Under the pieces are notes generated by a model. The model saw nothing but the letters and a program-made list of their open reading frames with translations, searched no databases and was not told the origin of the DNA. Below, in pieces: positions 2,697 through 53,230 of a stretch of DNA of 64,000 bases. Both the position numbers and the translations under genes were made by a program. Source of the stretch: Escherichia coli O127:H6 str. E2348/69 (lineage in GTDB: Bacteria; Pseudomonadota; Gammaproteobacteria; Enterobacterales; Enterobacteriaceae); assembly GCF_000026545.1 (NCBI RefSeq), contig NC_011601.1, one strand, 5' to 3'. Every line of letters begins with the position of its first letter. Positions within the stretch are counted from its first letter, which is position 1.

Positions 2697-3406
2697 TATG
2701 TATTCTCCTGATGGATGGTTCGGGTGAGGTAAAATTCGGCCAGCGCCAAATCCTCCGGGCGCGTTACCTTGATGTTATCCGCGCGGCCTTCAACAAGTTG
2801 CGGATGAAAACCGCAATATTCCAGCGCCGAGGCCTCATCGGTAATGGTAGCGCCTTCATTTAGAGCGCGCGTCAGGCAGTCATGTAACAGCTCACGAGGG
2901 AAAAATTGCGGCGTCAGTGCGTGCCATAAGCCATTGCGATCAACGGTGTGAGCAATGGCATTTTTACCCGTCTCGGCGCGTTTCATCGTATCGCGCACCG
3001 GCGCAGCGAGGATCCCTCCCGTGCGGCTGGTTTCGCTCAACGCCAACAGGCGCGCGAGGTCATCCTGATGCAGACAAGGACGAGCGGCGTCATGCACCAA
3101 TACCCACTGCGCGTCGCCAGCGGCTTTCAGACCTGCCAGCACGGAATCGGCACGCTCTTCACCACCATCAACAACCGTGATTTGTGGATGATTCGCCAGA
3201 GGAAGTTGTGCAAAGCGGCTATCGCCAGGACTTATGGCAATGACGACACGTTTCACCCTGGGATGCGCCAGCAGCGCATGCACCGAGTGTTCAAGAATGG
3301 TTTGATTACCGATTGAGAGATATTGCTTAGGACATTCCGTTTGCATTCGGCGGCCAAATCCGGCCGCCGGAACCACGGCGCAAACATCCAAATGAGTAGT
3401 TGCCAT
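2696..3406 (-). CDS. ispD: 2-C-methyl-D-erythritol 4-phosphate cytidylyltransferase
   Basis: 236-aa ORF, same length as IspD, conserved ispDF arrangement. Confidence 0.9.
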
Positions 3407-3424
3407 GTTAATTCCCGGGCTGAT

Positions 3425-3736
3425 TTATCGATTGTTTTGCCCCGCAGACTGTGCGCGCTTTGACGCGTCAGGCACCAGACGATAAAACGTTTCGCCCGGC
3501 CTGGTCATGCTGAGTTCATTACGCGCACGCTCTTCGAGCGCCTCCTGGCCGCCATTGAGATCGTCAATTTCGGCAAAAAGCTGATCGTTTCGCGCTTTAA
3601 GTTTCGCGTTTGTAGCTTGCTGTGCCGCCACATCATTATTGACGCGAGTATAGTCATGTATACCGTTCTTACCGAACCACAGCGAATACTGTAGCCAGAC
3701 CAGAATAGCCAGCAACAGCAGCGTTAGTTTACCCAT
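3425..3736 (-). CDS. ftsB: cell division protein FtsB
   Basis: 103 aa, N-terminal TM region plus coiled-coil ([22 protein letters not shown]...). Confidence 0.9.
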
Positions 3737-3928: not shown

Positions 3929-4252
3929 TTAACCCAGTAGCCACATAAACAGCGCACCAAACATAATGCCAACCGTCGCCAGAGTGAAAACAATACTGTA
4001 GCGTAGCTTTCCGTCCATCAATGAATGCAGTGCAATCCCCACCACCACTGCGACGGGCATCAGCGCCAGAAAGAAAGGCCAGGTGTAGATAAAAAAGAGC
4101 AGCGTGTTAGAGCCATAAATCAACATCGGAATTGCCAACGCGCACAGCCACGATAAAAAACCAACCACAGCGCCTGGCAGCGACCATGTGGTGTCTTCAA
4201 CCTCAGTAAGGCTGTCGTTATTTGTTAATGTAATGTTGTGGCTGTTACGCAT
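3929..4252 (-). CDS. ygbE: inner membrane protein YgbE (DUF3561)
   Basis: 107-aa hydrophobic ORF in the K-12 ygbE position between ftsB and cysC. Confidence 0.8.
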   Translation of the reverse strand: MRNSHNITLTNNDSLTEVEDTTWSLPGAVVGFLSWLCALAIPMLIYGSNTLLFFIYTWPFFLALMPVAVVVGIALHSLMDGKLRYSIVFTLATVGIMFGALFMWLLG

Positions 4253-4301
4253 ATCTGATCCTGTTACTTTGACGAACCGGGCATGAAAACCCGGTGGTGT
4301 C

Positions 4302-4907
4302 TCAGGATCTGATAATATCGTTCTGTCTCAACAGATCTAATAATTGCTGTACCAAATTTGTTACTAATTGTTCACCATTGAGATGAATTTCTGCCGATTC
4401 AGGCGCTTCGTAAACGGAATCTATTCCCGTAAAGTTGCGCAGTTCACCGGCACGCGCTTTCTTATATAAACCTTTTGGATCGCGGGCTTCGCAAATCGCC
4501 AGCGGCGTATCGACAAACACTTCGATAAAGCGCCCTTCTCCTACGCGTTCGCGAACCATCTGGCGTTCGGCGCGGTGTGGCGAGATAAATGCGGTCAGCA
4601 CCACCAGTCCGGCTTCAACCATCAAATTCGCCACTTCACCGACGCGACGGATATTCTCTTTACGGTCGGCATCGCTAAAACCGAGATCGCTGCATAATCC
4701 GTGGCGAACATTGTCGCCATCCAGCAGATACGTACTGACGCCAAGTTTATGTAACGCCTCCTCCAGCGCCCCCGCGACGGTTGATTTACCGGAACCAGAG
4801 AGGCCGGTAAACCACAGCACAACACCACGATGACCGTGGTGCTGTTCGCGTTGTTGCGGAGTTACTGGGTGGCTATGCCAGACGACGTTTTCGTCATGCA
4901 GCGCCAT
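4302..4907 (-). CDS. cysC: adenylyl-sulfate kinase
   Basis: 201 aa, P-loop GLSGSGKST, same length as CysC. Confidence 0.9.
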
Positions 4908-8657: not shown

Positions 8658-8810
8658 CTACTTCTTCGATTCGTAAGCGAGAACTGCCTTAAACTCCATA
8701 CCACGTTCTCTGATACTCAACTCACACAACGAGTCGCCTACCATCAACGTGAATCCCAGTACTGTACAACACAGTACGATGATTGCCACAAGGGCATATT
8801 TTGTCAGCAT
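8658..8810 (-). CDS. Hok/Gef-family type I toxin (50 aa), HokE/HokA-like
   Basis: Minus-strand ATG at 8808-8810 gives [50 protein letters not shown]; single TM helix plus conserved DSLCE...AVLAYE Hok motif; below the 60-aa ORF-track cutoff. Confidence 0.7.
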
Positions 8811-8814
8811 GTCT

Positions 8815-10150
8815 GTGTAAGTTCACAGAGATATTGCAATTGCCTCCGGATAAGTAAGGGGAGATTGCACTATGCAAATGCAGCATCTGATGGTTGGCTA
8901 TCCTAAGTACTACCAAACGGCCGATTATGCGTTGAGGCTTTCAGTGATGGCTGATATAGCAACAATGAGAATGAAGGCTCTGCACTTCTGGGATAAACAC
9001 GGTATTTCTGCAGCTTCTGAAGCCTTTGGCGTGTCCTGCCGCACGCTTTACTGGTGGCGTCAGTTACTGAACAAGGAAGGACCTGAGGGGCTAATCCCGC
9101 ACAGTAAGGCACCTCTGGTGCGACGAAAAAAACACTGGCATCCCGATGTGCTGAAAGAGATTCGACGCCTCAGGACAGAGCTGCCGAACCTCGGTAAAGA
9201 GCAGATTTTTGTTCGCCTGAAGCCCTGGTGCGAACAGCGCTATCTGGCCTGTCCGAGTGTTTCCACCATCGGCAGAATGATCGCTGCCGCACATGATAAA
9301 ATGCGGATGATACCTGTGCGTCTGGGATCGCGGGGGAAGGCACTGCTTGTCAAAAAGCGGTCTGCCAAACCCCGCAGGCCAAAGCACTACCGCCCGGTAA
9401 AGACAGGTGAGCTCATTGGGATGGACGCCATTGAGCTCAGAATGGGCGAACTGCGTCGCTATGTCATCACCATGATCGACGAATGCAGCAATTACGCGCT
9501 GGCGCTGGCTGTGCCGTCACTCAACAGTGATATCGTCAATCACTTCTTCAGCCGCGCAGCCCGGTTGTTCCCGGTCGGTATCAGCCAGATAATCACAGAT
9601 AACGGAAAAGAGTTCCTGGGAAACTTCGACAAAACGCTGCAGGAAGCCGCTATCAAACACCTCTGGACCTATCCCTACACGCCAAAAATGAACGCTATCT
9701 GTGAACGTTTTAACCGGACGTTAAGAGAGCAGTTTATTGAATTTAATGAGATTTTACTCTTTGAAGATCTGGCGCTATTTAACCAGAAGCTGGCGGAATA
9801 TCTGGTGCTGTATAACAGCAAAAGACCCCACAAGGCGCTCGCACTAATGACGCCCGTGGAATATATTTTAAAAGAGAATAAAAATTGCAATATGTGGTGG
9901 ACCCATACAATGTCTTGCCTCCTTGCAAAGAAGAGACTAACATCCGAATTGCTTAGGTTCGAACGTAGGCCTCAGGTTGATAGAAATATCGCCTGGGGCT
10001 TTTGTCCATCTGGAACCTCGCGAATGCTTAACGCCAGACAGCCTCAAGCACCCAACGCCATTCTATACCTGTTAATTTTCCCTGCGATGTTCACCTTTAA
10101 ATGCCGGAATGCTGCTCGCAAAATAAAAACGCCCCATCATTTCTGACAGA
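8815..10150 (+). mobile_element. insertion sequence (boundaries approximate; terminal inverted repeats not confidently identified)
   Basis: Transposase gene in a locus that is otherwise K-12-collinear; left end must lie between the hok start (8810) and tnp start (8872). Confidence 0.4.
8872..10146 (+). CDS. DDE (rve integrase-core) transposase with N-terminal HTH; IS481-family-like single-ORF transposase; C-terminal ~90 aa may be read-through
   Basis: 424-aa ORF with HTH (GVSCRTLYWWRQ) followed by rve motifs (ITDNGKEF, NSKRPHKAL); sits where the cas genes are in K-12. Confidence 0.7.
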   Translation: MQMQHLMVGYPKYYQTADYALRLSVMADIATMRMKALHFWDKHGISAASEAFGVSCRTLYWWRQLLNKEGPEGLIPHSKAPLVRRKKHWHPDVLKEIRRLRTELPNLGKEQIFVRLKPWCEQRYLACPSVSTIGRMIAAAHDKMRMIPVRLGSRGKALLVKKRSAKPRRPKHYRPVKTGELIGMDAIELRMGELRRYVITMIDECSNYALALAVPSLNSDIVNHFFSRAARLFPVGISQIITDNGKEFLGNFDKTLQEAAIKHLWTYPYTPKMNAICERFNRTLREQFIEFNEILLFEDLALFNQKLAEYLVLYNSKRPHKALALMTPVEYILKENKNCNMWWTHTMSCLLAKKRLTSELLRFERRPQVDRNIAWGFCPSGTSRMLNARQPQAPNAILYLLIFPAMFTFKCRNAARKIKTPHHF

Positions 10151-26133: not shown

Positions 26134-27054
26134 ATGAGCGCAAGAGTATGGGTACTCGGTGATGCGGTTGTTGATTTATTACCCGAAAGCCAGGGGAGAC
26201 TACTACAGTGTCCTGGCGGGGCGCCTGCTAATGTTGCAGTCGGTATCGCAAGGCTGGGGGGGAAAAGTGCCTTTATTGGCAAAGTTGGCGATGATCCTTT
26301 CGGTCGCTTTATGTATCAGACACTGAGTACAGAAAATGTTGATACACGTTATATGTCTCTTGATCCTCAACAACGCACCTCAATTGTGGCTGTAGGACTT
26401 GATGAGCAAGGAGAAAGAAACTTTACCTTTATGGTACGCCCAAGTGCCGATCTTTTTTTACAACCTGATGACCTTCCTACATTTGGGCCGGGTGAATGGC
26501 TCCATCTTTGTTCCATTGCGCTCAGTGCAGAACCTTCCCGAAGTACCGCATTTCTGGCTATGGAGAAAATACGTCAGGCTGGCGGAAACATCAGTTTTGA
26601 TCCCAATATCCGCAGCGATCTCTGGCAGAGTGAAGCGCTATTAAGAAAATACCTTGATCGCGCGCTTTCGCTGGCGAATATCGCTAAATTGTCCGAAGAA
26701 GAGTTGCTATTCATCAGTGGCGAAAGCCAGGTTCAGCAAGGCGCATATTCATTAGTACAACGTTATTCGTTGACTTTATTGCTTATCACACAAGGAAAAA
26801 ATGGCGTACTTGTGTATTTTCAGGGGCAGTTTATCCACTATCCCGCCAAACCTGTTTCTGTCGTCGATACGACCGGGGCAGGAGATGCTTTTGTCGCTGG
26901 ATTACTTGCAGGTCTGGCTGATTCTGGAATACCAACAAATACCAGACAGCTTGAACGAATCATTGCACAAGCTCAGATTTGTGGTGCTCTGGCGACCACG
27001 GCTAAAGGCGCGATGACCGCCTTACCCCGACAACACGATCTCCCTTCACAATAG
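26134..27054 (+). CDS. scrK: fructokinase (PfkB family)
   Basis: 306 aa, ribokinase-family motifs (GGAPANVA, DTTGAGDAF). Confidence 0.85.
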   Translation: MSARVWVLGDAVVDLLPESQGRLLQCPGGAPANVAVGIARLGGKSAFIGKVGDDPFGRFMYQTLSTENVDTRYMSLDPQQRTSIVAVGLDEQGERNFTFMVRPSADLFLQPDDLPTFGPGEWLHLCSIALSAEPSRSTAFLAMEKIRQAGGNISFDPNIRSDLWQSEALLRKYLDRALSLANIAKLSEEELLFISGESQVQQGAYSLVQRYSLTLLLITQGKNGVLVYFQGQFIHYPAKPVSVVDTTGAGDAFVAGLLAGLADSGIPTNTRQLERIIAQAQICGALATTAKGAMTALPRQHDLPSQ

Positions 27055-27104
27055 TGATCCTGCTGTTGTATCTGTAACCCGATTTGTCGTGCCTGTCACA
27101 TTTA

Positions 27105-27178
27105 CTAAATCGGTTTAGCGAAAATAATTGCTCTGGCTAAAAAGTCAGCTTTATTATCAACACCTAAACCGGTTTAGC
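27105..27178. promoter_or_regulatory. two palindromic operators (ctaaatcggtttag and ctaaaccggtttag) in scrY promoter region
   Basis: 14-bp near-perfect and perfect palindromes 45 bp apart, same half-site (AAACCG) as the scrK operator. Confidence 0.5.
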
Positions 27179-27197
27179 ATTTTAGCAATTTTTATAA

Positions 27198-28739
<1,542 letters not shown>

Positions 28740-28799
28740 TACCAGACAGCCTCACGGATGTGAGGCTTTTACTGAAATAACAATGAATTAGAGGGTTAT

Positions 28800-30170
28800 A
28801 TGGATTTCGATAAAATCGCCCAATCGTTGCTTCCTTTATTAGGTGGTAAGGAGAACATCGCCAGTGCAGCACATTGCGCCACTCGCCTACGGCTGGTACT
28901 GGTTGACGACACACTTGCCGATCAACATGCCATTGGCCAGATTGATGGAGTGAAAGGTTGTTTTCGTAATTCAGGGCAAATGCAAATCATCTTTGGCACC
29001 GGCGTGGTTAATAAAGTCTATGCTGCCTTTATTCAGGTTGCAGGTATTAGCGAATCCAGTAAAGCAGATACCGCTCGACTCGCCGCTCAAAAACTCAATC
29101 CTTTTCAGCGAATAGCACGGCTACTTTCTAATATTTTTGTCCCCATCATTCCAGCCATTGTTGCTTCTGGTTTATTAATGGGGCTCCTGGGAATGGTGAA
29201 AACATATGGCTGGGTGAATGCCGATAATGCGATTTATATCCTGCTGGATATGTGCAGTTCAGCCGCATTTATTATTCTCCCCATCCTTATTGGCTTTACT
29301 GCTGCTCGTGAATTTGGTGGAAATCCTTATCTTGGCGCGACATTAGGAGGGATTCTGACTCACCCGGCACTCACAAATGCCTGGGGCGTTGCTGCGGGAT
29401 TTCAGACAATGAACTTCTTCGGTTTTGAAATCGCCATGATTGGCTATCAGGGAACGGTTTTCCCCGTGCTTCTGGCAGTATGGTTTATGAGCATAGTGGA
29501 AAAACAGTTACGCAGGTTTATCCCTGATGCTCTGGATCTCATTCTGACGCCATTTCTGACTGTCGTCATTTCTGGCTTTATCGCTCTTTTGATTATTGGT
29601 CCGGCAGGACGAGCGTTAGGTGACGGTATCTCTTTCGTTCTCAGCACGCTGATTGCACACGCAGGCTGGTTAGCAGGGTTGTTATTCGGCGGGCTATATT
29701 CAGCGATTGTTATTACGGGTATTCATCATAGCTTCCACGCAATTGAAGCAGGACTTTTAGGTAACCCTGCAATCGGTGTTAATTTCCTGCTGCCTATTTG
29801 GGCAATGGCAAACGTTGCGCAAGGAGGTGCATGTCTGGCGGTATGGTTTAAAACCAAAGATACAAAAATTAAAGCAATCACCCTACCCTCGGCCTTTTCC
29901 GCAATGTTAGGGATTACTGAAGCCGCTATTTTTGGTATCAACCTTCGTTTTGTTAAACCTTTTATTGCGGCCTTAATTGGTGGCGCTGCCGGCGGTGCCT
30001 GGGTTGTCTCTGTTCACGTTTATATGACTGCCGTTGGTCTGACCGCAATACCCGGCATGGCAATCGTTCAGCCAACATCGTTGGTTAATTATATTATTGG
30101 AATGGTGATTGCTTTCGCTGTCGCTTTTAGCCTCTCTTTATTACTCAAATACAAAACGGACGAGGAGTAA
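28800..30170 (+). CDS. scrA: PTS sucrose-specific EIIBC
   Basis: 456 aa, EIIB Cys motif (AAHCATRLR) plus EIIC membrane domain. Confidence 0.85.
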   Translation: MDFDKIAQSLLPLLGGKENIASAAHCATRLRLVLVDDTLADQHAIGQIDGVKGCFRNSGQMQIIFGTGVVNKVYAAFIQVAGISESSKADTARLAAQKLNPFQRIARLLSNIFVPIIPAIVASGLLMGLLGMVKTYGWVNADNAIYILLDMCSSAAFIILPILIGFTAAREFGGNPYLGATLGGILTHPALTNAWGVAAGFQTMNFFGFEIAMIGYQGTVFPVLLAVWFMSIVEKQLRRFIPDALDLILTPFLTVVISGFIALLIIGPAGRALGDGISFVLSTLIAHAGWLAGLLFGGLYSAIVITGIHHSFHAIEAGLLGNPAIGVNFLLPIWAMANVAQGGACLAVWFKTKDTKIKAITLPSAFSAMLGITEAAIFGINLRFVKPFIAALIGGAAGGAWVVSVHVYMTAVGLTAIPGMAIVQPTSLVNYIIGMVIAFAVAFSLSLLLKYKTDEE

Positions 30171-31579
30171 TGTCGATGCCTTCACAAATGCCCGCGATTT
30201 TACAGGCAGTGATGAAAGGTCAGTCCAAAGCACTGGCAGATGCCCACTATCCTTGTTGGCATCTCGCTCCAGTCACCGGACTAATGAACGATCCAAATGG
30301 CTTTTGTTGGTCTGGAGGCCGCTATCATCTGTTTTATCAATGGAATCCACTGGCTTGTGATCATAAGTACAAATGTTGGGGGCACTGGAGTTCGACGGAT
30401 TTATTGCACTGGCAGCATGAACCATTAGCGCTAATGCCCGATAAAGAGTACGACCGTAATGGTTGTTACTCAGGAAGCGCGGTTAATAATCAGGGCGTTC
30501 TCACACTTTGCTATACCGGTAATGTTAAGTTTGATGATGGCAGCAGAACGGCATGGCAATGCCTGGCCACCGAAAATAACCAGGGCGGGTTTGATAAACT
30601 AGGCCCTGTCATACCGTTACCTGATGGTTACACCGGACATGTTCGTGATCCAAAAGTCTGGAAGCACAACAGCCAATGGTACATGGTGCTTGGCGCGCAA
30701 GATAAAGAGAAACGGGGGAAAGTGCTGCTGTATTCCTCTGTCGATCTCTATACCTGGTCTTTTCATGGAGAAATTGCTGGTAACGGTCTGAATGAAATAG
30801 ATAACGCAGGATACATGTGGGAATGTCCTGATCTTTTCGCCCTTGATGGTGAATACATTCTCCTCTGTTGCCCCCAGGGAATGGTGCGCGAACATGAGCG
30901 CTATCTGAATACTTATCCCTGCGCCTGGCTACATGGACAGTTTGATTACGAGACAGGCAAATTTACGCATGGCGCTTTCTCAGAGCTGGATGCGGGATTT
31001 GAATTCTATGCACCACAGACGATGGAAGCCCCGGACGGGCGACGATTGCTGGTCGGCTGGATGGGGGTTCCTGATGGCGAAGAGATGTTGCAGCCAACCA
31101 GAAAGCATCATTGGCAGCATCAAATGACCTGTTTTCGCGAACTCTCATTCCAGAAGGGAAAATTGTTTCAGATGCCAATCAGGGAACTCGCGCAACTGCG
31201 TGAAGCTGAACACTTCTGGCAAGGAAAAGCGGATCATGCGCCGCATGTCGAAATTGAACGCCTGGAAATGGACATCATTCCGTCGGGTGAGCTGTATCTG
31301 AATTTTGGCAATGCGCTGGCACTGCATCTTAATGACGATGGTATTCAACTACAGAGGAGAAGCCTTGCAGGGCAAGAGAAACTAACTCGTTACTGGCGAG
31401 GAAGCGTAACGTCACTGAAGATTCTCTGTGACAGTTCCAGCGTAGAGATATTCATCAATAATGGTGAAGGTGTAATGAGTAATCGTTATTTTCCCCATCA
31501 TCCAGCTTCGCTGATATTACAGGGTGAGTCTGACGTCACGTTACGCTACTGGTCGCTACGCGCCTGCATGGTAGAATGA
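30170..31579 (+). CDS. scrB: sucrose-6-phosphate hydrolase (GH32)
   Basis: 469 aa, GH32 motifs (NDPNG, RDP, EC); start overlaps scrA stop. Confidence 0.85.
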
Positions 31580-31604
31580 GGGTTTTGAATTACGGATCCT
31601 CGTC

Positions 31605-32612
31605 GTGAGAAAAACCAAACGCGTTACTATTAAAGACATTGCTGAACTGGCGGGAGTGTCGAAAGCAACCGCCAGTCTGGTTCTCAATGGTCGTGGCAAA
31701 GAGTTACGTGTTGCGCAGGAAACGCGTGAGCGTGTGCTGAGTATTGCCCAACAGCAGCATTATCAGCCCAGCATTCATGCCCGCTCATTACGGGACAACC
31801 GCAGTCATACCATTGGTCTCGTCGTTCCTGAAATCACTAACTACGGATTTGCAGTATTTTCCCATGAACTGGAAACATTGTGTCGGGAAGCGGGCGTCCA
31901 GCTCCTCATATCCTGTACTGATGAAAATCCTTCACAGGAAACAATGGTGGTGAACAATATGATTGCCCGCCAGGTTGATGGGTTAATCGTCGCATCCAGT
32001 ATGCTGCATGATAATGACTATCAAAAACTTAGCGAGCAATTACCTGTTGTGTTGTTCGATCGCCACATGAACGGCAGTACATTGCCATTGGTCATTACTG
32101 ACTCTGTTTCTCCCACCGCCGCTCTGGTGGCAGATATTGCACGGAGTCACCCGGATGAATTCTATTTTCTGGGCGGACAACCCCGTTTGTCACCGACTCG
32201 CGATCGACTGGAAGGATTTACACAAGGCTTGCAGCAAGCCGGAGTAACGCTACAACCTGAATGGATTATTCACGGTAATTATCATCCGAGCTCAGGCTAT
32301 GAAATGTTTGCCGCGCTATGCGCTCGTTTAGGACGTCCCCCTAAAGCCTTATTCACTGCCGCTTGTGGATTACTGGAAGGCGTTCTGCGCTATATGAGCC
32401 AATATAATTTACTCGACAGTAAAATACACCTGGCGAGTTTTGATGATCATTACTTGTATGATTCACTTTCGGTAAGAATCGACACAATACAACAGGATAA
32501 TCGCCAACTTGCTTTTCACTGCTTTGAACTTATTTCGCAACTGATTGAAGGTGAAACGCCATCCCCATTACAGCGTTATCTTCCTGCCAGTCTACAAAAA
32601 CGCTACCGATAA
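31605..32612 (+). CDS. scrR: LacI-family sucrose operon repressor (GTG start)
   Basis: 335 aa, N-terminal [26 protein letters not shown]. Confidence 0.85.
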
Positions 32613-39368: not shown

Positions 39369-41603
39369 CTAACTCCCGTGCAACCGACGCGCGTCGATAA
39401 CATCCGGCACCTGGTTGAGTTTACCCAGCACGCGACCCAGCACTTGCAGGTTGTAAATCTCAATGGTCATGTCGATGGTCGCCAGTTGCTGTTTGGTGTC
39501 GCTACGGCTGGCAACGCCAAGTACGTTCACCTTCTCGTTGGCGAGAATGGTCGTGATATCACGTAACAACCCACTACGATCATTAGCCACCACGCGGACC
39601 ACCAGCGAATATCCGGCGGAGTAGCTCTCACCCCATACCGCGTCAACAATGCGTTCTGGCGCATGGGAGCGCAGTTCCGCCAATTGTTCGCAATCGGCGC
39701 GGTGTACTGAAATACCGCGCCCCTGGGTAATGAAGCCGACAATCTCATCTCCAGGAATCGGCTGGCAGCAGCGCGCGATGTGGTGCATCAGGTTACCAAC
39801 ACCTTCTACCACCACACGACCGTTATCTTTACTGCGGTTTTGCGGCGTATAGCTTTTTTGCTGAAGTTGCTTCAGCGCGGCGGCATCCTGCTCTTCGGCA
39901 CTCGGCTTATTAAATTGCGATTGCAGGAAGTTCACCATCTGATTGAGACGGATATCCCCGCCACCAATTGCCGCCAGCAACTCGTCGACATCATTGAAGT
40001 TGTAACGCGGCAGCAGATGTTTTTCTGCTTCTTTCAGGCTGATCCCCAGATGTTCCAGCTCGTCGTCAAGGATTTGCCGCCCAGCCAGAATGTTTTTGTC
40101 ACGGTCCTGTTTACGGAACCAGGCGTGAATTTTCGAACGCCCACGGCTGGTTGTGACGTAACCGAGGTTTGGGTTTAACCAGTCACGGCTGGGGTTCGGC
40201 TGTTTCTGGGTGATAATTTCAATCTGGTCGCCCATCTGCAGCTGGTAGGTGAACGGCACAATGCGCCCGCCAATTTTTGCCCCGATGCAGCGGTGTCCGA
40301 CATCACTGTGGATGTGGTAAGCGAAGTCCAGCGGTGTTGATCCCGCAGGCAAATCAACGACATCACCTTTCGGCGTAAAGACGTACACCCGGTCGTCAAA
40401 GACCTGGCTACGTACTTCGTCGAGCATTTCGCCGGAATCAGCCATCTCTTCCTGCCACGCAATCAGTTTACGCAGCCAGGCAATCCGGTCTTCATGTCCC
40501 GAACGTGCGCCGCCAGCTGCCGCGCCCTCTTTATATTTCCAGTGTGCAGCAACACCCAACTCTGCATCTTCATGCATCTGTTTGGTGCGGATTTGGATCT
40601 CAACGGTTTTGCCACCCGGCCCCAGAACCACGGTATGAATAGACTGATAACCGTTTGGTTTCGGGTTAGCGACGTAATCGTCAAACTCATCCGGCAGGTG
40701 GCGATAGTGAGTGTGCACTATCCCCAGTGCGGCATAACAATCCTGTAAACGCTCGGCGACAATACGTACCGCACGCACATCAAACAGCTCATCGAAGGCG
40801 AGGTTCTTTTTCTGCATTTTGCGCCAGATGCTGTAGATGTGTTTCGGACGACCATACACTTCAGCTTTAACGCCTTCAGCTTTCATCTCAGCGCGCAGAT
40901 GGCCGACAAACTCTTCGATATAGTGTTCGCGGTCAAGACGGCGTTCATGCAGCAGTTTTGCGATGCGTTTGTATTCGGTCGGGTGCAGATAACGGAAGCA
41001 GTAATCTTCCAGCTCCCATTTCAGTTGCCCAATCCCAAGACGGTTCGCCAACGGCGCGTAGATATTGGTGCACTCTTTTGCCGCCAGTACGCGTTCATCT
41101 TCCGGCGCATCTTTTACTTCGCGCAGGTGAGCAATACGCTCCGCCAGTTTGATGACCACGCAGCGAAAATCATCGACCATCGCCAATAACATCCGGCGAA
41201 CGTTATCGACCTGTTCGGAGGAAACAGAATCGGTATGCGTCGCTTTCAGCTGGCGGATCGCCGCCATATCACGCACGCCGTGAATAAGGTTAACGACCGA
41301 CTTACCGACGCTCTCACGCAGCACATCTTCGCTGACTACGTTGGCATCGGCCAGAGGGAACAGCAGCGCCGCCCGCAGCGTGTCAATGTCCATACTTAAT
41401 GTCGAGAGGATCTCCACCATCTCAACACCACGCCACAATAACAGACTGGCATCCGGATGCCCCTGCGTCTGTTGCAGACAATACGCCCAGGTTTCGGCTA
41501 AGCACTCACACGACTTCTGGCTGGTAATACCCAGACTTGCGATCCATTTTTCCGGATCAAATTCACCAGCCTTATTGATATGTGCACTTCTTACCGCAAC
41601 CAT
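39369..41603 (-). CDS. relA: GTP pyrophosphokinase ((p)ppGpp synthetase I)
   Basis: 744 aa, RelA/SpoT synthetase, TGS and ACT domains. Confidence 0.95.
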   Translation of the reverse strand: MVAVRSAHINKAGEFDPEKWIASLGITSQKSCECLAETWAYCLQQTQGHPDASLLLWRGVEMVEILSTLSMDIDTLRAALLFPLADANVVSEDVLRESVGKSVVNLIHGVRDMAAIRQLKATHTDSVSSEQVDNVRRMLLAMVDDFRCVVIKLAERIAHLREVKDAPEDERVLAAKECTNIYAPLANRLGIGQLKWELEDYCFRYLHPTEYKRIAKLLHERRLDREHYIEEFVGHLRAEMKAEGVKAEVYGRPKHIYSIWRKMQKKNLAFDELFDVRAVRIVAERLQDCYAALGIVHTHYRHLPDEFDDYVANPKPNGYQSIHTVVLGPGGKTVEIQIRTKQMHEDAELGVAAHWKYKEGAAAGGARSGHEDRIAWLRKLIAWQEEMADSGEMLDEVRSQVFDDRVYVFTPKGDVVDLPAGSTPLDFAYHIHSDVGHRCIGAKIGGRIVPFTYQLQMGDQIEIITQKQPNPSRDWLNPNLGYVTTSRGRSKIHAWFRKQDRDKNILAGRQILDDELEHLGISLKEAEKHLLPRYNFNDVDELLAAIGGGDIRLNQMVNFLQSQFNKPSAEEQDAAALKQLQQKSYTPQNRSKDNGRVVVEGVGNLMHHIARCCQPIPGDEIVGFITQGRGISVHRADCEQLAELRSHAPERIVDAVWGESYSAGYSLVVRVVANDRSGLLRDITTILANEKVNVLGVASRSDTKQQLATIDMTIEIYNLQVLGRVLGKLNQVPDVIDARRLHGS

Positions 41604-43008: not shown

Positions 43009-45765
43009 ATGACCAACTACAGCCTGCGCGCACGCATGATGATTCTGATCCTGGCACCGACCGTCCTTATTGGTTTATTGCTGAGTATCTTTTTCGTTGT
43101 GCATCGCTATAACGACTTGCAGCGTCAACTGGAAGATGCCGGAGCCAGCATTATTGAGCCGCTTGCAGTTTCTACTGAATATGGCATGAGCCTGCAAAAC
43201 CGCGAATCTATCGGTCAGTTAATAAGCGTACTGCATCGTCGCCATTCCGATATTGTTCGCGCGATTTCGGTTTATGATGAAAATAACCGACTCTTTGTCA
43301 CCTCCAATTTTCATCTTGATCCCTCATCAATGCAGCTCGGCAGCAACGTGCCGTTTCCTCGCCAGCTCACTGTCACCCGTGACGGCGATATTATGATCCT
43401 CCGCACGCCGATTATTTCTGAGAGTTACTCCCCCGACGAATCGCCCAGTAGCGATGCCAAAAATAGTCAAAATATGCTGGGATATATTGCGCTGGAGCTG
43501 GATCTTAAATCGGTTCGCTTGCAGCAATATAAAGAGATCTTTATTTCCAGCGTGATGATGCTGTTTTGTATCGGTATTGCGCTTATTTTTGGCTGGCGCT
43601 TAATGCGCGATGTAACCGGTCCGATTCGCAATATGGTGAATACCGTCGACCGCATCCGTCGCGGGCAACTCGACAGCCGTGTGGAAGGATTTATGCTCGG
43701 CGAGCTGGATATGCTGAAAAACGGTATCAACTCGATGGCAATGTCGCTGGCTGCTTATCACGAAGAGATGCAGCACAATATCGACCAGGCGACGTCCGAT
43801 CTGCGTGAAACGCTGGAGCAGATGGAAATTCAGAACGTTGAGTTGGATCTGGCGAAAAAGCGCGCCCAGGAAGCGGCGCGTATTAAATCCGAGTTTCTTG
43901 CAAATATGTCACACGAGCTGCGTACACCACTGAATGGTGTTATTGGCTTTACCCGCCTGACGCTGAAAACAGAATTAACACCAACGCAGCGCGATCACCT
44001 GAATACGATTGAACGTTCGGCAAATAATTTGCTGGCAATTATTAATGATGTTCTCGACTTCTCGAAACTGGAAGCCGGTAAGCTGATTCTGGAAAGTATT
44101 CCATTCCCACTACGCAGCACGCTGGATGAAGTCGTTACCCTGCTGGCACATTCTTCTCACGATAAAGGGCTGGAACTGACGCTCAATATTAAAAGCGACG
44201 TGCCTGATAACGTTATCGGCGACCCACTACGATTACAGCAAATCATCACTAACCTGGTGGGGAATGCAATTAAATTCACCGAGAATGGCAACATTGATAT
44301 TCTGGTAGAAAAACGTGCGCTGAGTAATACCAAAGTGCAGATTGAAGTGCAGATTCGGGATACCGGCATTGGTATTCCTGAACGCGATCAATCGCGCTTA
44401 TTCCAGGCCTTCCGACAGGCTGATGCCAGTATTTCCCGCCGTCATGGTGGCACCGGGCTGGGGCTGGTGATTACACAAAAACTGGTTAATGAAATGGGCG
44501 GCGATATTTCGTTTCATAGCCAGCCGAATCGCGGTTCAACTTTCTGGTTCCACATTAATCTCGATCTGAATCCGAACATTATTATTGAAGGGCCATCCAC
44601 CCAGTGCCTCGCCGGTAAACGCCTGGCCTATGTCGAACCAAACTCCGCAGCAGCGCAATGCACGCTGGATATTTTAAGTGAAACGCCGCTGGAGGTGGTT
44701 TATAGCCCAACGTTCTCCGCGCTGCCTCCCGCGCATTACGACATGATGTTGTTAGGCATCGCGGTGACCTTCCGCGAGCCGCTAACAATGCAACATGAGC
44801 GATTAGCGAAAGCGGTATCGATGACCGATTTCCTGATGCTGGCACTTCCTTGCCATGCACAAGTCAATGCTGAAAAACTCAAGCAAGATGGTATCGGCGC
44901 GTGTCTGCTGAAACCATTAACACCTACGCGCCTGTTGCCTGCCCTGACGGAATTTTGTCATCACAAACAAAACACGCTTTTGCCTGTAACCGATGAAAGT
45001 AAGCTGGCAATGACAGTCATGGCGGTTGATGACAACCCCGCTAACCTGAAACTTATCGGCGCATTGCTGGAAGATATGGTGCAACATGTGGAACTTTGCG
45101 ATAGCGGGCATCAGGCGGTTGAACGGGCGAAACAGATGCCGTTCGATTTGATCTTAATGGATATTCAAATGCCGGACATGGACGGCATTCGGGCCTGCGA
45201 ACTCATCCACCAGCTCCCCCATCAGCAACAAACGCCGGTTATCGCGGTAACGGCGCATGCAATGGCCGGGCAAAAAGAGAAGCTGCTTGGCGCAGGGATG
45301 AGCGATTATCTGGCGAAACCGATTGAAGAAGAGCGATTGCATAATTTGTTGTTGCGCTACAAGCCTGGCAGCGGTATTTCCTCTCGCGTCGTGACGCCCG
45401 AAGTCAACGAAATTGTGGTGAACCCGAATGCGACCCTCGACTGGCAACTGGCACTACGCCAGGCAGCAGGAAAAACCGATTTAGCGCGCGATATGCTGCA
45501 AATGTTACTCGATTTCCTGCCTGAAGTTCGCAACAAAGTTGAGGAACAGCTGGTTGGAGAAAACCCGGAAGGCCTGGTTGATTTGATTCATAAACTGCAT
45601 GGCAGTTGCGGCTATAGCGGTGTGCCGCGTATGAAGAATATCTGCCAACTGATCGAACAACAGCTACGTAGCGGTACTAAAGAAGAAGATTTAGAGCCGG
45701 AGCTGCTGGAACTGTTGGACGAGATGGATAATGTAGCGCGCGAAGCCAGCAAAATTCTCGGGTAA
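43009..45765 (+). CDS. barA: hybrid sensor histidine kinase BarA
   Basis: 918 aa: TM-HAMP-HisKA(H box SHELRTPLN)-HATPase-REC-HPt. Confidence 0.95.
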
Positions 45766-50951: not shown

Positions 50952-51734
50952 TTAGGAACTTATCTCTCCATCCTGACCCGATGGCGCACTGAACTCAACC
51001 CTTTCATTTTCAGGAAGCAGACCGCGCCAGCCAAATTGTGATAACGCCTGCATCCAGGTGTCGTCCAGGCCCGCGTGAATAGTCAGCGGCTCGCCAGTAA
51101 AAGGATGCGTCAATGACAACTGACTGGCATGCAGCATTAACCGCTGAAGGCCAAAATGCTCAGCACCGCTGCGATTCTGGCGTAAATCACCATGTTTGCT
51201 GTCGCCAATAATCGGGTGCCGCAAATGGGCAAGATGGCGACGAAGCTGGTGCTTGCGTCCAGTTTTCGGCTCCAGTTCCACCAGGCCGTAGCGCGTGGTC
51301 GGGTAACGTCCGGTCGCTACCGGCATTTCTACGGTCGCCAGACCGCGATAATGCGTCACTGCTGGCTGCGGGCCTTTATCTTCGCGGGCAAATTTATCAG
51401 CGATTTTGTCCAGTTCTTCCACCAGTGGATAATCCAGCACCGCTTCTTCCATCAACCAGCCACGCACAATCGCATGGTAACGTTTCTGGATTTGGTGCTG
51501 TTCAAACTGTTGTGCCAGCAGCCGTCCGGCTTCGCTGGATAATCCCATCAACAACACACCAGAAGTTGGTCGGTCCAGACGATGAGCAGTAAAAACATGC
51601 TGGCCTATCTGGTCACGCACGGTTTGCATGACCACTACTTTCTCGTCGCGATCCAGCCAGCTGCGGTGAACCAACCAGCCGGAGGGTTTATTTACCGCAA
51701 CCAGCCATTCATCCTGATAGAGTATTTCCAGCAT
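50952..51734 (-). CDS. truC: tRNA pseudouridine65 synthase
   Basis: 260 aa, RluA-family motif ([12 protein letters not shown]). Confidence 0.85.
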
Positions 51735-52063
51735 TAGCTCGCATCATCCGCAAAAAGAGCATCCAGTTTTTCCAGCTCTGCCAGAATAAGCGCGCGTTGC
51801 GGGTGGTCCGTCGCCAGCGCCATTTCATAATAAGGCGCAACAGCAAAAGCGCCCGGTAACGGCTGGTTGTTATCTAACAAATCGTGCATTCGCGGGATCA
51901 GCACCCACTGCAACCACTCCAGTGGTTCCATGGTGTCCATAAAGAACGGTTGAGTACTGTTAAATTGATGCGGCAGGGGTTCATCGTTTCGCCAGTGCTG
52001 ATGTTCACGCAGTAACGCTTCAAGCGCCTGCAACTGGAGACGAACGCGGTCATGAGTGGTCAT
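51734..52063 (-). CDS. yqcC: DUF446 protein YqcC
   Basis: 109 aa; stop overlaps truC start. Confidence 0.8.
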   Translation of the reverse strand: MTTHDRVRLQLQALEALLREHQHWRNDEPLPHQFNSTQPFFMDTMEPLEWLQWVLIPRMHDLLDNNQPLPGAFAVAPYYEMALATDHPQRALILAELEKLDALFADDAS

Positions 52064-52106
52064 AAAGCAACCTCAATAAGAAAAACTGCCGCGAAGAATA
52101 GCAGGA

Positions 52107-52474
52107 ATAAAAAAAGGGAGCACTGTATTCACAGTGCTCCCGGTTCGTTTCGCAGCATTCCGGCTACTTTTATTGCTCCCTGCTCATCCTTGACAACTTT
52201 TCCTCTGGCCTTACGGCCAATCGTTCATCCTGAACTATTGCTTCCTGCTCACACCACCCCGATGTGATACTTCATCCTGAAGTGTTCCTGGCCTTCCTGA
52301 CCCACCGAATCATCCTGACCGGTTCTCATTCTCCATCCTGGAGGTGTCCTTTAACGCGTCCTGCGTCATCCTCTTCGCTTCATCCAGAAGCCTTTCCCTG
52401 AAACACCATCCTGGTGTGTCCTTCAGAAGTGTCATCATCCTGATGTTCACTTCGTTGTCTGACTCCCTGTCGAC
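52107..52474 (-). ncRNA. csrB: CsrB sRNA (CsrA-sequestering)
   Basis: About 18 copies of CAGGA(U/A)G on the minus strand (seen as catcctg on plus); 5' end GTCGACAGGGAGTCAGACAACGAAGTGAACATCAGGATGATGACAC; 3' terminator gggagcactgtattcacagtgctccc plus U-run. Confidence 0.85.
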
Positions 52475-52684
52475 GAAGATAGAATCGTCTTTTTCTCGAA
52501 GTCTTACAAGGCGCTTACAGACAATGCCTTAAGGAAAATTTCATATGAAAGTTAAGAATTAACAAGCAACATGTTGTTTTTAAATGAGAATAACGATTCT
52601 TATCTTTTTAAGTATTCGCTTATTTCCTGGCGATCTCCTACAGAGTCTGTAAGAGATCTCTCACAACCAGATGGGGTATTTGGA

Positions 52685-53230
52685 TTACAGAAGAGGCTTA
52701 AGTTGATTAAGGAATTCCGCAAGATTTGAGGCTAAATGCGTCCGTTTACGTGTTCCCAGCGTCTCTTTGCACACTTCACCGGAGAGATTACACACCGAGA
52801 TGACCTCTAACTCTTCTTCCAGCGTCGCGATAAATAGCGTGGGCGGCAGTTTTAGCCTTTTCTGAGTCACCAGATGACCAATCAGATTTTCCTGCACCCG
52901 ACGGAAGTCGTCTTCACTCCAGGTTTGCAGCAATGTCAGTTTGATATCGCCAAACTGCGCGTGCATATCCCCGGCAAACTGAGTCGTATAAAAGGTATGA
53001 ATCGTGGGTTGTATCACAATATCAAAAGCGCGTTCAACCGCGTTTACATTTTGTTCCCCGGTAAACGGCTGGGGTTGCCAGTATACGGCATCTTCGGTAG
53101 TTGAAATAATGCACGGTGAAGGAACGCCGTACAGTTCCTCACTTAACGGCCAGCTTTTATGCTCTTCATGCCACGCATCGCAGTAGCGTGCAGTAAAATC
53201 TTTCAGGGCTTGTGCGGTCAAATCGTCCAC
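52685..53230 (-). CDS. syd: SecY-interacting protein Syd
   Basis: 181 aa [23 protein letters not shown]... Confidence 0.85.

Follow-up and report, generated by a model that had tools for sequence, protein, structure and literature searches.

csrB of Escherichia coli O127:H6 E2348/69, a conserved non-coding RNA gene overlaid by spurious open reading frames

This analysis concerns a stretch of 64,000 nucleotides (nt) from the chromosome of Escherichia coli O127:H6 str. E2348/69 (contig NC_011601.1 of assembly GCF_000026545.1), hereafter the window, and within it the interval between the genes yqcC and syd. We regard it as almost certain that this interval holds the chromosomal csrB gene of E2348/69, that the gene specifies a UvrY-activated, untranslated RNA of 369 nt which sequesters the protein CsrA, and that the open reading frames (ORFs) covering the locus are by-products. 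csrB is an already well-known gene of E. coli. The case is built from membership of an RNA family, ends placed by homology, the number and placement of binding motifs, an intrinsic terminator, an upstream UvrY box, synteny, conservation of the RNA across genera and a lack of coding conservation over the same nucleotides. The small RNA (sRNA) and the parts of it that matter most to the argument are as follows.

52106 to 52474, minus strand: csrB sRNA, 369 nt with 22 GGA motifs, from the RF00018 match, with ends taken from alignment to K-12 b4408
52109 to 52141, minus strand: intrinsic terminator found by terminator scan, with its hairpin at 52116 to 52141 and a U7 tract at 52109 to 52115
52142 to 52151, minus strand: predicted single-stranded segment GAAACGAACC, lying 3' of the site-21 hairpin and 5' of the terminator, by identity with K-12
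52159 to 52181, minus strand: GGA sites 20 (52177 to 52179) and 21 (52159 to 52161), the 3'-terminal CsrA sites

A sequence-only reading of the window had proposed that the locus is csrB, a non-coding RNA of the minus strand, and the covariance search bears this out: the Rfam CsrB family (RF00018) matches the minus strand from 52106 to 52465 with 382 bits (E = 4e-111), across model positions 1 to 356 of 356 and without truncation. The result which that reading had named as refuting it, the lack of a CsrB match in Rfam, thus did not arise. That score is about five times the family's gathering score of 71 bits, and an Rfam scan of the whole window at gathering thresholds returned two matches in all, CsrB and sok. 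Set against the curated csrB gene of K-12 (b4408, an ncRNA of 369 nt), the sequence in the window is identical at 363 of 369 nt (98.4%), with six substitutions and no insertions or deletions. A stretch of 1.6 kb around the locus is 100% identical to the E2348/69 genome, and among 5426 complete E. coli genomes all but one (5425) have the locus. It lies on the same strand as both of its flanking genes, yqcC and syd, and the surrounding gene order (barA, gudD, gudX, gudP, yqcA, truC, yqcC, a 621-bp gap containing csrB, syd, queF) is equal to that of K-12 MG1655.

The locus carries an extreme concentration of GGA, the core of the motif that CsrA recognises. The 369 nt of csrB hold 22 GGA triplets, with two on the opposite strand, and the density of about 21 to 22 per 360 nt is the maximum for the 64-kb window, in which the strand mean is 4.9 (standard deviation 2.4). 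Composition-matched shuffles contain 11.9 on average (standard deviation 2.7), and the cluster is far beyond chance. The numbering of the sites from 1 to 22, with site 22 inside the terminator, agrees with that of Vakulskas et al. 2016 (PMC5027483). About 18 repeats of the form CAGGA(U/A)G had been claimed from the sequence, a figure that holds for imperfect repeats only and that is the one given in the literature, not a count of the pattern: the heptamer occurs 8 times exactly, 13 times when at least six of its seven positions must agree and 15 times when at least five must.

Predicted structure places many of these motifs in hairpin loops. When the GGA motifs in predicted hairpin loops are counted, as the sequence-only reading had suggested, the minimum free energy (MFE) fold of the single sequence puts 12 of the 21 within the Rfam span in hairpin loops, six in unpaired linkers and three in positions that are at least partly paired, and a conservative consensus fold of 19 genera puts 9 of 22 in loops. 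The full-length RNA has an MFE of -117.7 kcal/mol (z = -4.4 relative to mononucleotide shuffles). The RNAalifold consensus of 19 orthologues contains 58 pairs, 20 of them with compensatory changes on both sides, and carries GGA in its loops; the covariation is to be read with the alignment behind it in mind, which is MAFFT-based and not fitted to the covariance model.

At the 3' end of the gene, the strong intrinsic terminator that had been recognised from the letters has an 11-bp stem, seven of whose pairs are GC, closed by a loop of 4 nt and followed by a T7 tract (U7 in the RNA), with a predicted energy of -21.3 kcal/mol; its stem pairs are kept with compensatory changes across 19 genera, and GGA site 22 lies within its 5' arm. 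In K-12, sites 20 and 21, the last two CsrA sites, guard CsrB against RNase E (PMC5027483), and both sites are present in 19 of 19 orthologues. The segment GAAACGAACC is equal to that of K-12 and is invariant or nearly so in the 19 genera; by analogy with the K-12 assignment (PMC5027483), it would be the entry segment for RNase E. Site 20, the site-21 hairpin, the single-stranded segment and the terminator thus named make up a 3' module that is almost invariant among the 19 aligned orthologues.

Conservation beyond the species was followed using Syd as an anchor, by which 65 loci were fetched from other species and 20 loci, representing 16 genera, were scanned. In every one of the 20, a full-length CsrB was found directly downstream of syd and on its strand, at scores of 187 to 382 bits. 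The 19 orthologues that were aligned contain 20 to 27 GGA motifs each, and 21 of the 22 motifs in the window recur at the same position or within about four alignment columns in at least 16 of the 19, with nucleotide identity to the window falling to about 50 to 60% in the most distant genera. Members of RF00018 in other Enterobacterales (among them Citrobacter, Kosakonia, and Erwinia, where the RNA is known as RsmB) are alike in their position downstream of syd, their 20 to 27 GGA motifs, their terminator, their 3' module and their UvrY box, whereas the Erwinia and Pantoea versions differ in a middle section that is 40 to 65 nt shorter. Closer to home, csrB of K-12 MG1655 (b4408) shares the position, strand, 22 GGA sites, UvrY repeat and half-site, and terminator of the E2348/69 gene; the differences are that CAGGAC has become AAGGAC at site 3 in E2348/69, that one substitution shifts site 14 and another alters the base beside site 21, and that the terminator stem is fully Watson-Crick in E2348/69 where K-12 has a G-U pair.

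One of the scanned loci stands out for its copy number. In Apirhabdus apintestini (CP138906.1), syd is followed downstream by two full-length CsrB copies in tandem, at 3259 to 3618 and 3944 to 4304 (252 and 257 bits); each of the other 19 scanned loci has a single copy.

Upstream of csrB, the following elements can be read on the same strand, with positions counted from a start site at 52474.

52648 to 52665, minus strand: predicted binding site for phosphorylated UvrY (UvrY-P), the 18-nt inverted repeat TGTGAGAGATCTCTTACA, centred at -183/-182
52634 to 52642, minus strand: further half-site TGTAGGAGA, separated by 5 bp from the UvrY inverted repeat upstream of it, by its match to PMC4682653
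52567 to 52579, minus strand: site resembling the IHF consensus, AAACAACATGTTG, at -105 to -93, with one mismatch to WATCAANNNNTTR
52481 to 52509, minus strand: putative sigma-70 promoter, with -35 TTGTAA at 52504 to 52509, a 17-nt spacer and -10 GATTCT at 52481 to 52486

The 18-nt inverted repeat is equal in sequence and in position to the UvrY-P site of K-12, which was defined by chromatin immunoprecipitation with exonuclease treatment (ChIP-exo) and DNase I footprinting (Zere et al. 2015, PMC4682653). Across 15 promoters from nine genera it is identical in 14, with one substitution in Atlantibacter. The half-site likewise equals that of PMC4682653 in both sequence and spacing, and is kept as TGT(A/G)(A/G)GAGA in 14 of the 15 promoters; Atlantibacter has TGTGAGATA. 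Nearer the gene, the blocks CTTGTAAGA and ATTCTAT are invariant in all 15 promoters, the candidate -10 element has A at -11 and T at -7, and the G at 52474 would be the csrB start site. We infer a sigma-70 promoter here from this geometry and from the invariant blocks. Between the two, a putative IHF site is described in K-12 as lying between two UvrY crosslinking regions, and IHF activates csrB about 10-fold in that strain (PMC4682653); the 13-mer at 52567 to 52579 is probably the same site, for which K-12 has the perfect AATCAAAATGTTG, matching WATCAANNNNTTR. The 210 bp upstream of csrB differ from K-12 by five substitutions, four of which fall together at the IHF-like site (interval 52545 to 52624), and the exact 80-nt promoter allele of that interval recurs in 913 of the 5426 complete E. 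coli genomes.

Against this background must be set the reading frames that a mechanical six-frame list lays over the same nucleotides.

52052 to 52267, plus strand: ORF A, 71 amino acids, ATG start, a chance ORF antisense to the 3' part of csrB
52344 to 52532, plus strand: ORF B, 62 amino acids, GTG start, a chance ORF antisense to the 5' part of csrB
52264 to 52401, plus strand: ORF C, 45 amino acids, antisense to csrB
52310 to 52450, minus strand: ORF D, 46 amino acids, GTG start at 52450, inside csrB and judged spurious

ORFs A and B are the two to which the sequence-only reading had drawn attention, and both are in the list at the coordinates it gave; ORFs C and D, which are in the list as well, it had not named. 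It had described them as lying inside or antisense to csrB; antisense is correct for both and inside for neither, as each extends past an end of the gene. ORF A covers the 3' 162 nt of csrB, the spacer between csrB and yqcC and, in antisense, the first 12 nt of yqcC, where its start would fall, and ORF B covers the 5' 131 nt of csrB together with 58 nt of its promoter, again in antisense. Its verdict that they are spurious stands: ORFs A and B are chance products of six-frame translation, since they are of background size, lack family matches and annotated coding sequences (CDSs), are absent as exact sequences from the protein record and are not conserved in frame. The window holds 240 six-frame ORFs of at least 62 amino acids and 185 of at least 71, against only a few dozen CDSs in RefSeq. 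Pfam gave no match at E values up to 1 for ORFs A, B, C or D, and NCBIfam none for A or B; the exact sequences of A, B and C do not occur among the roughly 15 billion proteins of a large collection, in which variants with other starts could still exist. The RefSeq annotation of E2348/69, made by the Prokaryotic Genome Annotation Pipeline (PGAP), has no feature, neither a CDS nor a csrB ncRNA, in the gap between yqcC and syd (52064 to 52684), the ten best-matching RefSeq genomes list none over csrB, and the curated K-12 record does annotate csrB, without any CDS in that gap. That one or both of these ORFs might nonetheless be genuine small-protein genes transcribed opposite csrB has in its favour that E2348/69 and K-12 alike keep them open and begin them with ATG or GTG. 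Set beside the number of equally long ORFs that arise by chance in the window, and a promoter scan that returned no promoter-like site on either strand, this carries little weight, and we consider such genes extremely unlikely. The frameshifts effectively refute them: in E. whittamii, E. ruysiae and E. albertii a frameshift breaks ORF A, of which only 16 amino acids are read through, while ORF B meets in-register stops that shorten it to 50 amino acids in E. albertii and to 14 in two of three Citrobacter, and is broken by stops or frameshifts in every other genus even as the RNA features persist. ORF C is frameshifted in E. albertii. An idea that the reverse complement of the repeat, CATCCTG, being free of stops in all frames, gives rise to the antisense ORFs was dropped, as the region is not poor in stops: the antisense strand over csrB has 11 stop triplets per 369 nt, and at 36% of window positions the count is equal or lower.

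ORF D lies on the sense strand and within the transcript, and on this ground CsrB could be imagined in Escherichia as a dual-function RNA, at once a CsrA sponge and a template for low-level translation from the GTG at 52450. An AGGGAG 13 to 14 nt upstream of that codon, the intactness of the frame across the Escherichia species compared and its presence in databases, from 62 contigs, under the label of hypothetical protein (ECP_2774 of E. coli 536, UniRef A0A1L7AR16) all speak for translation. Yet intactness is expected without selection at nucleotide identities of at least 96%, and the sole K-12 difference within the frame alters an amino acid. Of the 17 orthologues outside Escherichia, 14 lack the start codon and 9 have in-register stops, while the features of the RNA stay conserved; the frame is unconserved beyond Escherichia and Citrobacter, and its product is without a Pfam match. 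A deposited variant of 56 amino acids begins 6 nt before the csrB 5' end, which puts its start ahead of the start of transcription. CsrA seated on the GGA sites would presumably block the access of ribosomes. Ribosome profiling (RIBOseq) of enterohaemorrhagic E. coli (EHEC) EDL933 gave CsrB a ribosome coverage value (RCV) of 0.04, and its authors used the RNA as an example of one that is untranslated (PMC5331693); a literature search for CsrB translation found only evidence against it. Translation of ORF D is accordingly, in our estimation, very unlikely, and ORF D is the actual over-annotation at the csrB locus in public records. The suggestion that the locus would serve as a control for over-annotation therefore holds for the mechanical ORF track and fails for public annotation as originally framed: the two flagged ORFs are not called publicly, and the one that is deposited had been missed. 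The identity of the RNA itself might also be questioned, as the families of Rfam clan CL00106 have an architecture of GGA-bearing loops in common and another Csr/Rsm member, CsrC or a diverged paralogue, would display it too. Clan competition in cmscan, however, retained CsrB across the full model, and the upstream inverted repeat is the perfect one of the csrB type and not the weaker csrC version. Synteny between syd and yqcC and the identity to K-12 csrB already refute that alternative, which we hold to be vanishingly improbable.

The assignment to csrB as an untranslated, UvrY- and IHF-controlled RNA is therefore preferred, and several points limit the evidence for it. The 5' end at 52474 is provisional in that it is carried over from the K-12 annotation. 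A consensus sigma-70 scan reported no promoter at csrB on either strand, a failure that fits a weak, activator-dependent promoter. The core of the IHF-like site reads AACAA here and ATCAA in K-12, which changes one consensus position, and the dependence of csrB on IHF could differ quantitatively from that in K-12; K-12 shares its ATCAA core with Shigella, three other Escherichia species and Citrobacter murliniae, and the E2348/69 state therefore looks derived. Finally, ORF D is intact in K-12, E. ruysiae, E. whittamii and E. albertii. Nothing that was found contradicts the csrB reading.

How the gene would work in E2348/69 can be proposed by analogy with experiments on the K-12 gene, at 98.4% identity, from which CsrA sequestration, activation by UvrY and IHF, and turnover dependent on RNase E and CsrD are all carried across. 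The binding of CsrA by CsrB is itself experimental in K-12 (PMC5027483). BarA would phosphorylate UvrY, and UvrY-P would bind the 18-nt inverted repeat at -183/-182 and so activate csrB, with IHF probably bending the DNA to bring UvrY to the weak sigma-70 promoter. Transcription would then run from 52474 to the intrinsic terminator near 52106, yielding an untranslated RNA of 369 nt in which short hairpins are predicted to present about half of the 22 GGA motifs in their loops, most of the others falling in single-stranded linkers. These motifs would mimic the targets of the CsrA dimer that resemble ribosome-binding sites, such that a single CsrB could occupy many CsrA dimers and relieve the control that CsrA exerts over its mRNA targets. 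At the 3' end, CsrA held at sites 20 and 21 would shield the single-stranded RNase E entry site before the terminator, a shielding that CsrD would lift.

CsrC of E. coli and RsmX, RsmY and RsmZ of Pseudomonas are sponges for CsrA or RsmA which, like CsrB, bear many GGA motifs in loops and linkers; they differ from CsrB in being shorter, in having fewer sites, in lying at other loci and in belonging to different Rfam families. Activation of csrC and the Rsm RNAs proceeds from BarA-UvrY or GacS-GacA by way of an upstream palindrome (in part from PMC4682653), and csrC of E. coli has a weaker inverted repeat and is independent of IHF (PMC4682653).

Three protein-coding genes of the window bear directly on the locus, two as neighbours and one as a regulator.

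51734 to 52063, minus strand: yqcC, the downstream neighbour of csrB, from the ORF list and RefSeq
52685 to 53230, minus strand: syd, the upstream neighbour of csrB, matching NF003439 at 286.7 bits and annotated in RefSeq
43009 to 45765, plus strand: barA, whose product is the sensor kinase acting by phosphorylation on UvrY, the csrB activator; an ORF of 918 amino acids matching NF008318 and annotated in RefSeq

The match of BarA to its equivalog NF008318 scores 1623 bits against a cutoff of 890. The statement that barA is encoded 7 kb away is a fair approximation, the distance being 6.3 kb from the barA stop codon to the csrB 3' end and 9.5 kb from the barA start to the csrB 5' end, and equal in K-12. 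None of uvrY, csrA, csrC or csrD is among the genes annotated across the 64-kb window. The gene relA (39369 to 41603) lies, with barA, within 13 kb of csrB in the K-12 order; ppGpp with DksA, and BarA, are both discussed as inputs to csrB expression by Zere et al. (PMC4682653). Nothing indicates a function for the linkage of relA and barA to csrB in itself.

Elsewhere in the window, two intervals depart from what we take to be the arrangement in K-12. The interval between iap and cysH (8658 to 10053) is without a CRISPR array or cas operon, at a position that in K-12 is presumably occupied by the type I-E CRISPR system. It contains instead a Hok/Gef CDS (8658 to 8810, minus strand), a truncated insertion sequence (IS) integrase pseudogene (8872 to 9906, plus strand) and the Rfam match to the sok antitoxin (9904 to 10053, minus strand, 104.6 bits), and appears to be a hok/sok locus split by an IS insertion. 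Between ygcE and queE, at 26134 to 32612, lies a cluster of the sucrose-utilisation type, comprising a kinase, a carbohydrate porin, a sucrose phosphotransferase system (PTS) component IIBC, a sucrose-6-phosphate hydrolase and a regulator of the LacI family, and this cluster we assume to be absent from the same position in K-12.

For the annotation of this strain, the present fault in RefSeq is a missing csrB RNA gene and not a false protein. More generally, csrB offers a calibration point for the reading of mechanical ORF tracks, which routinely give ORFs of 60 to 70 amino acids over non-coding genes.

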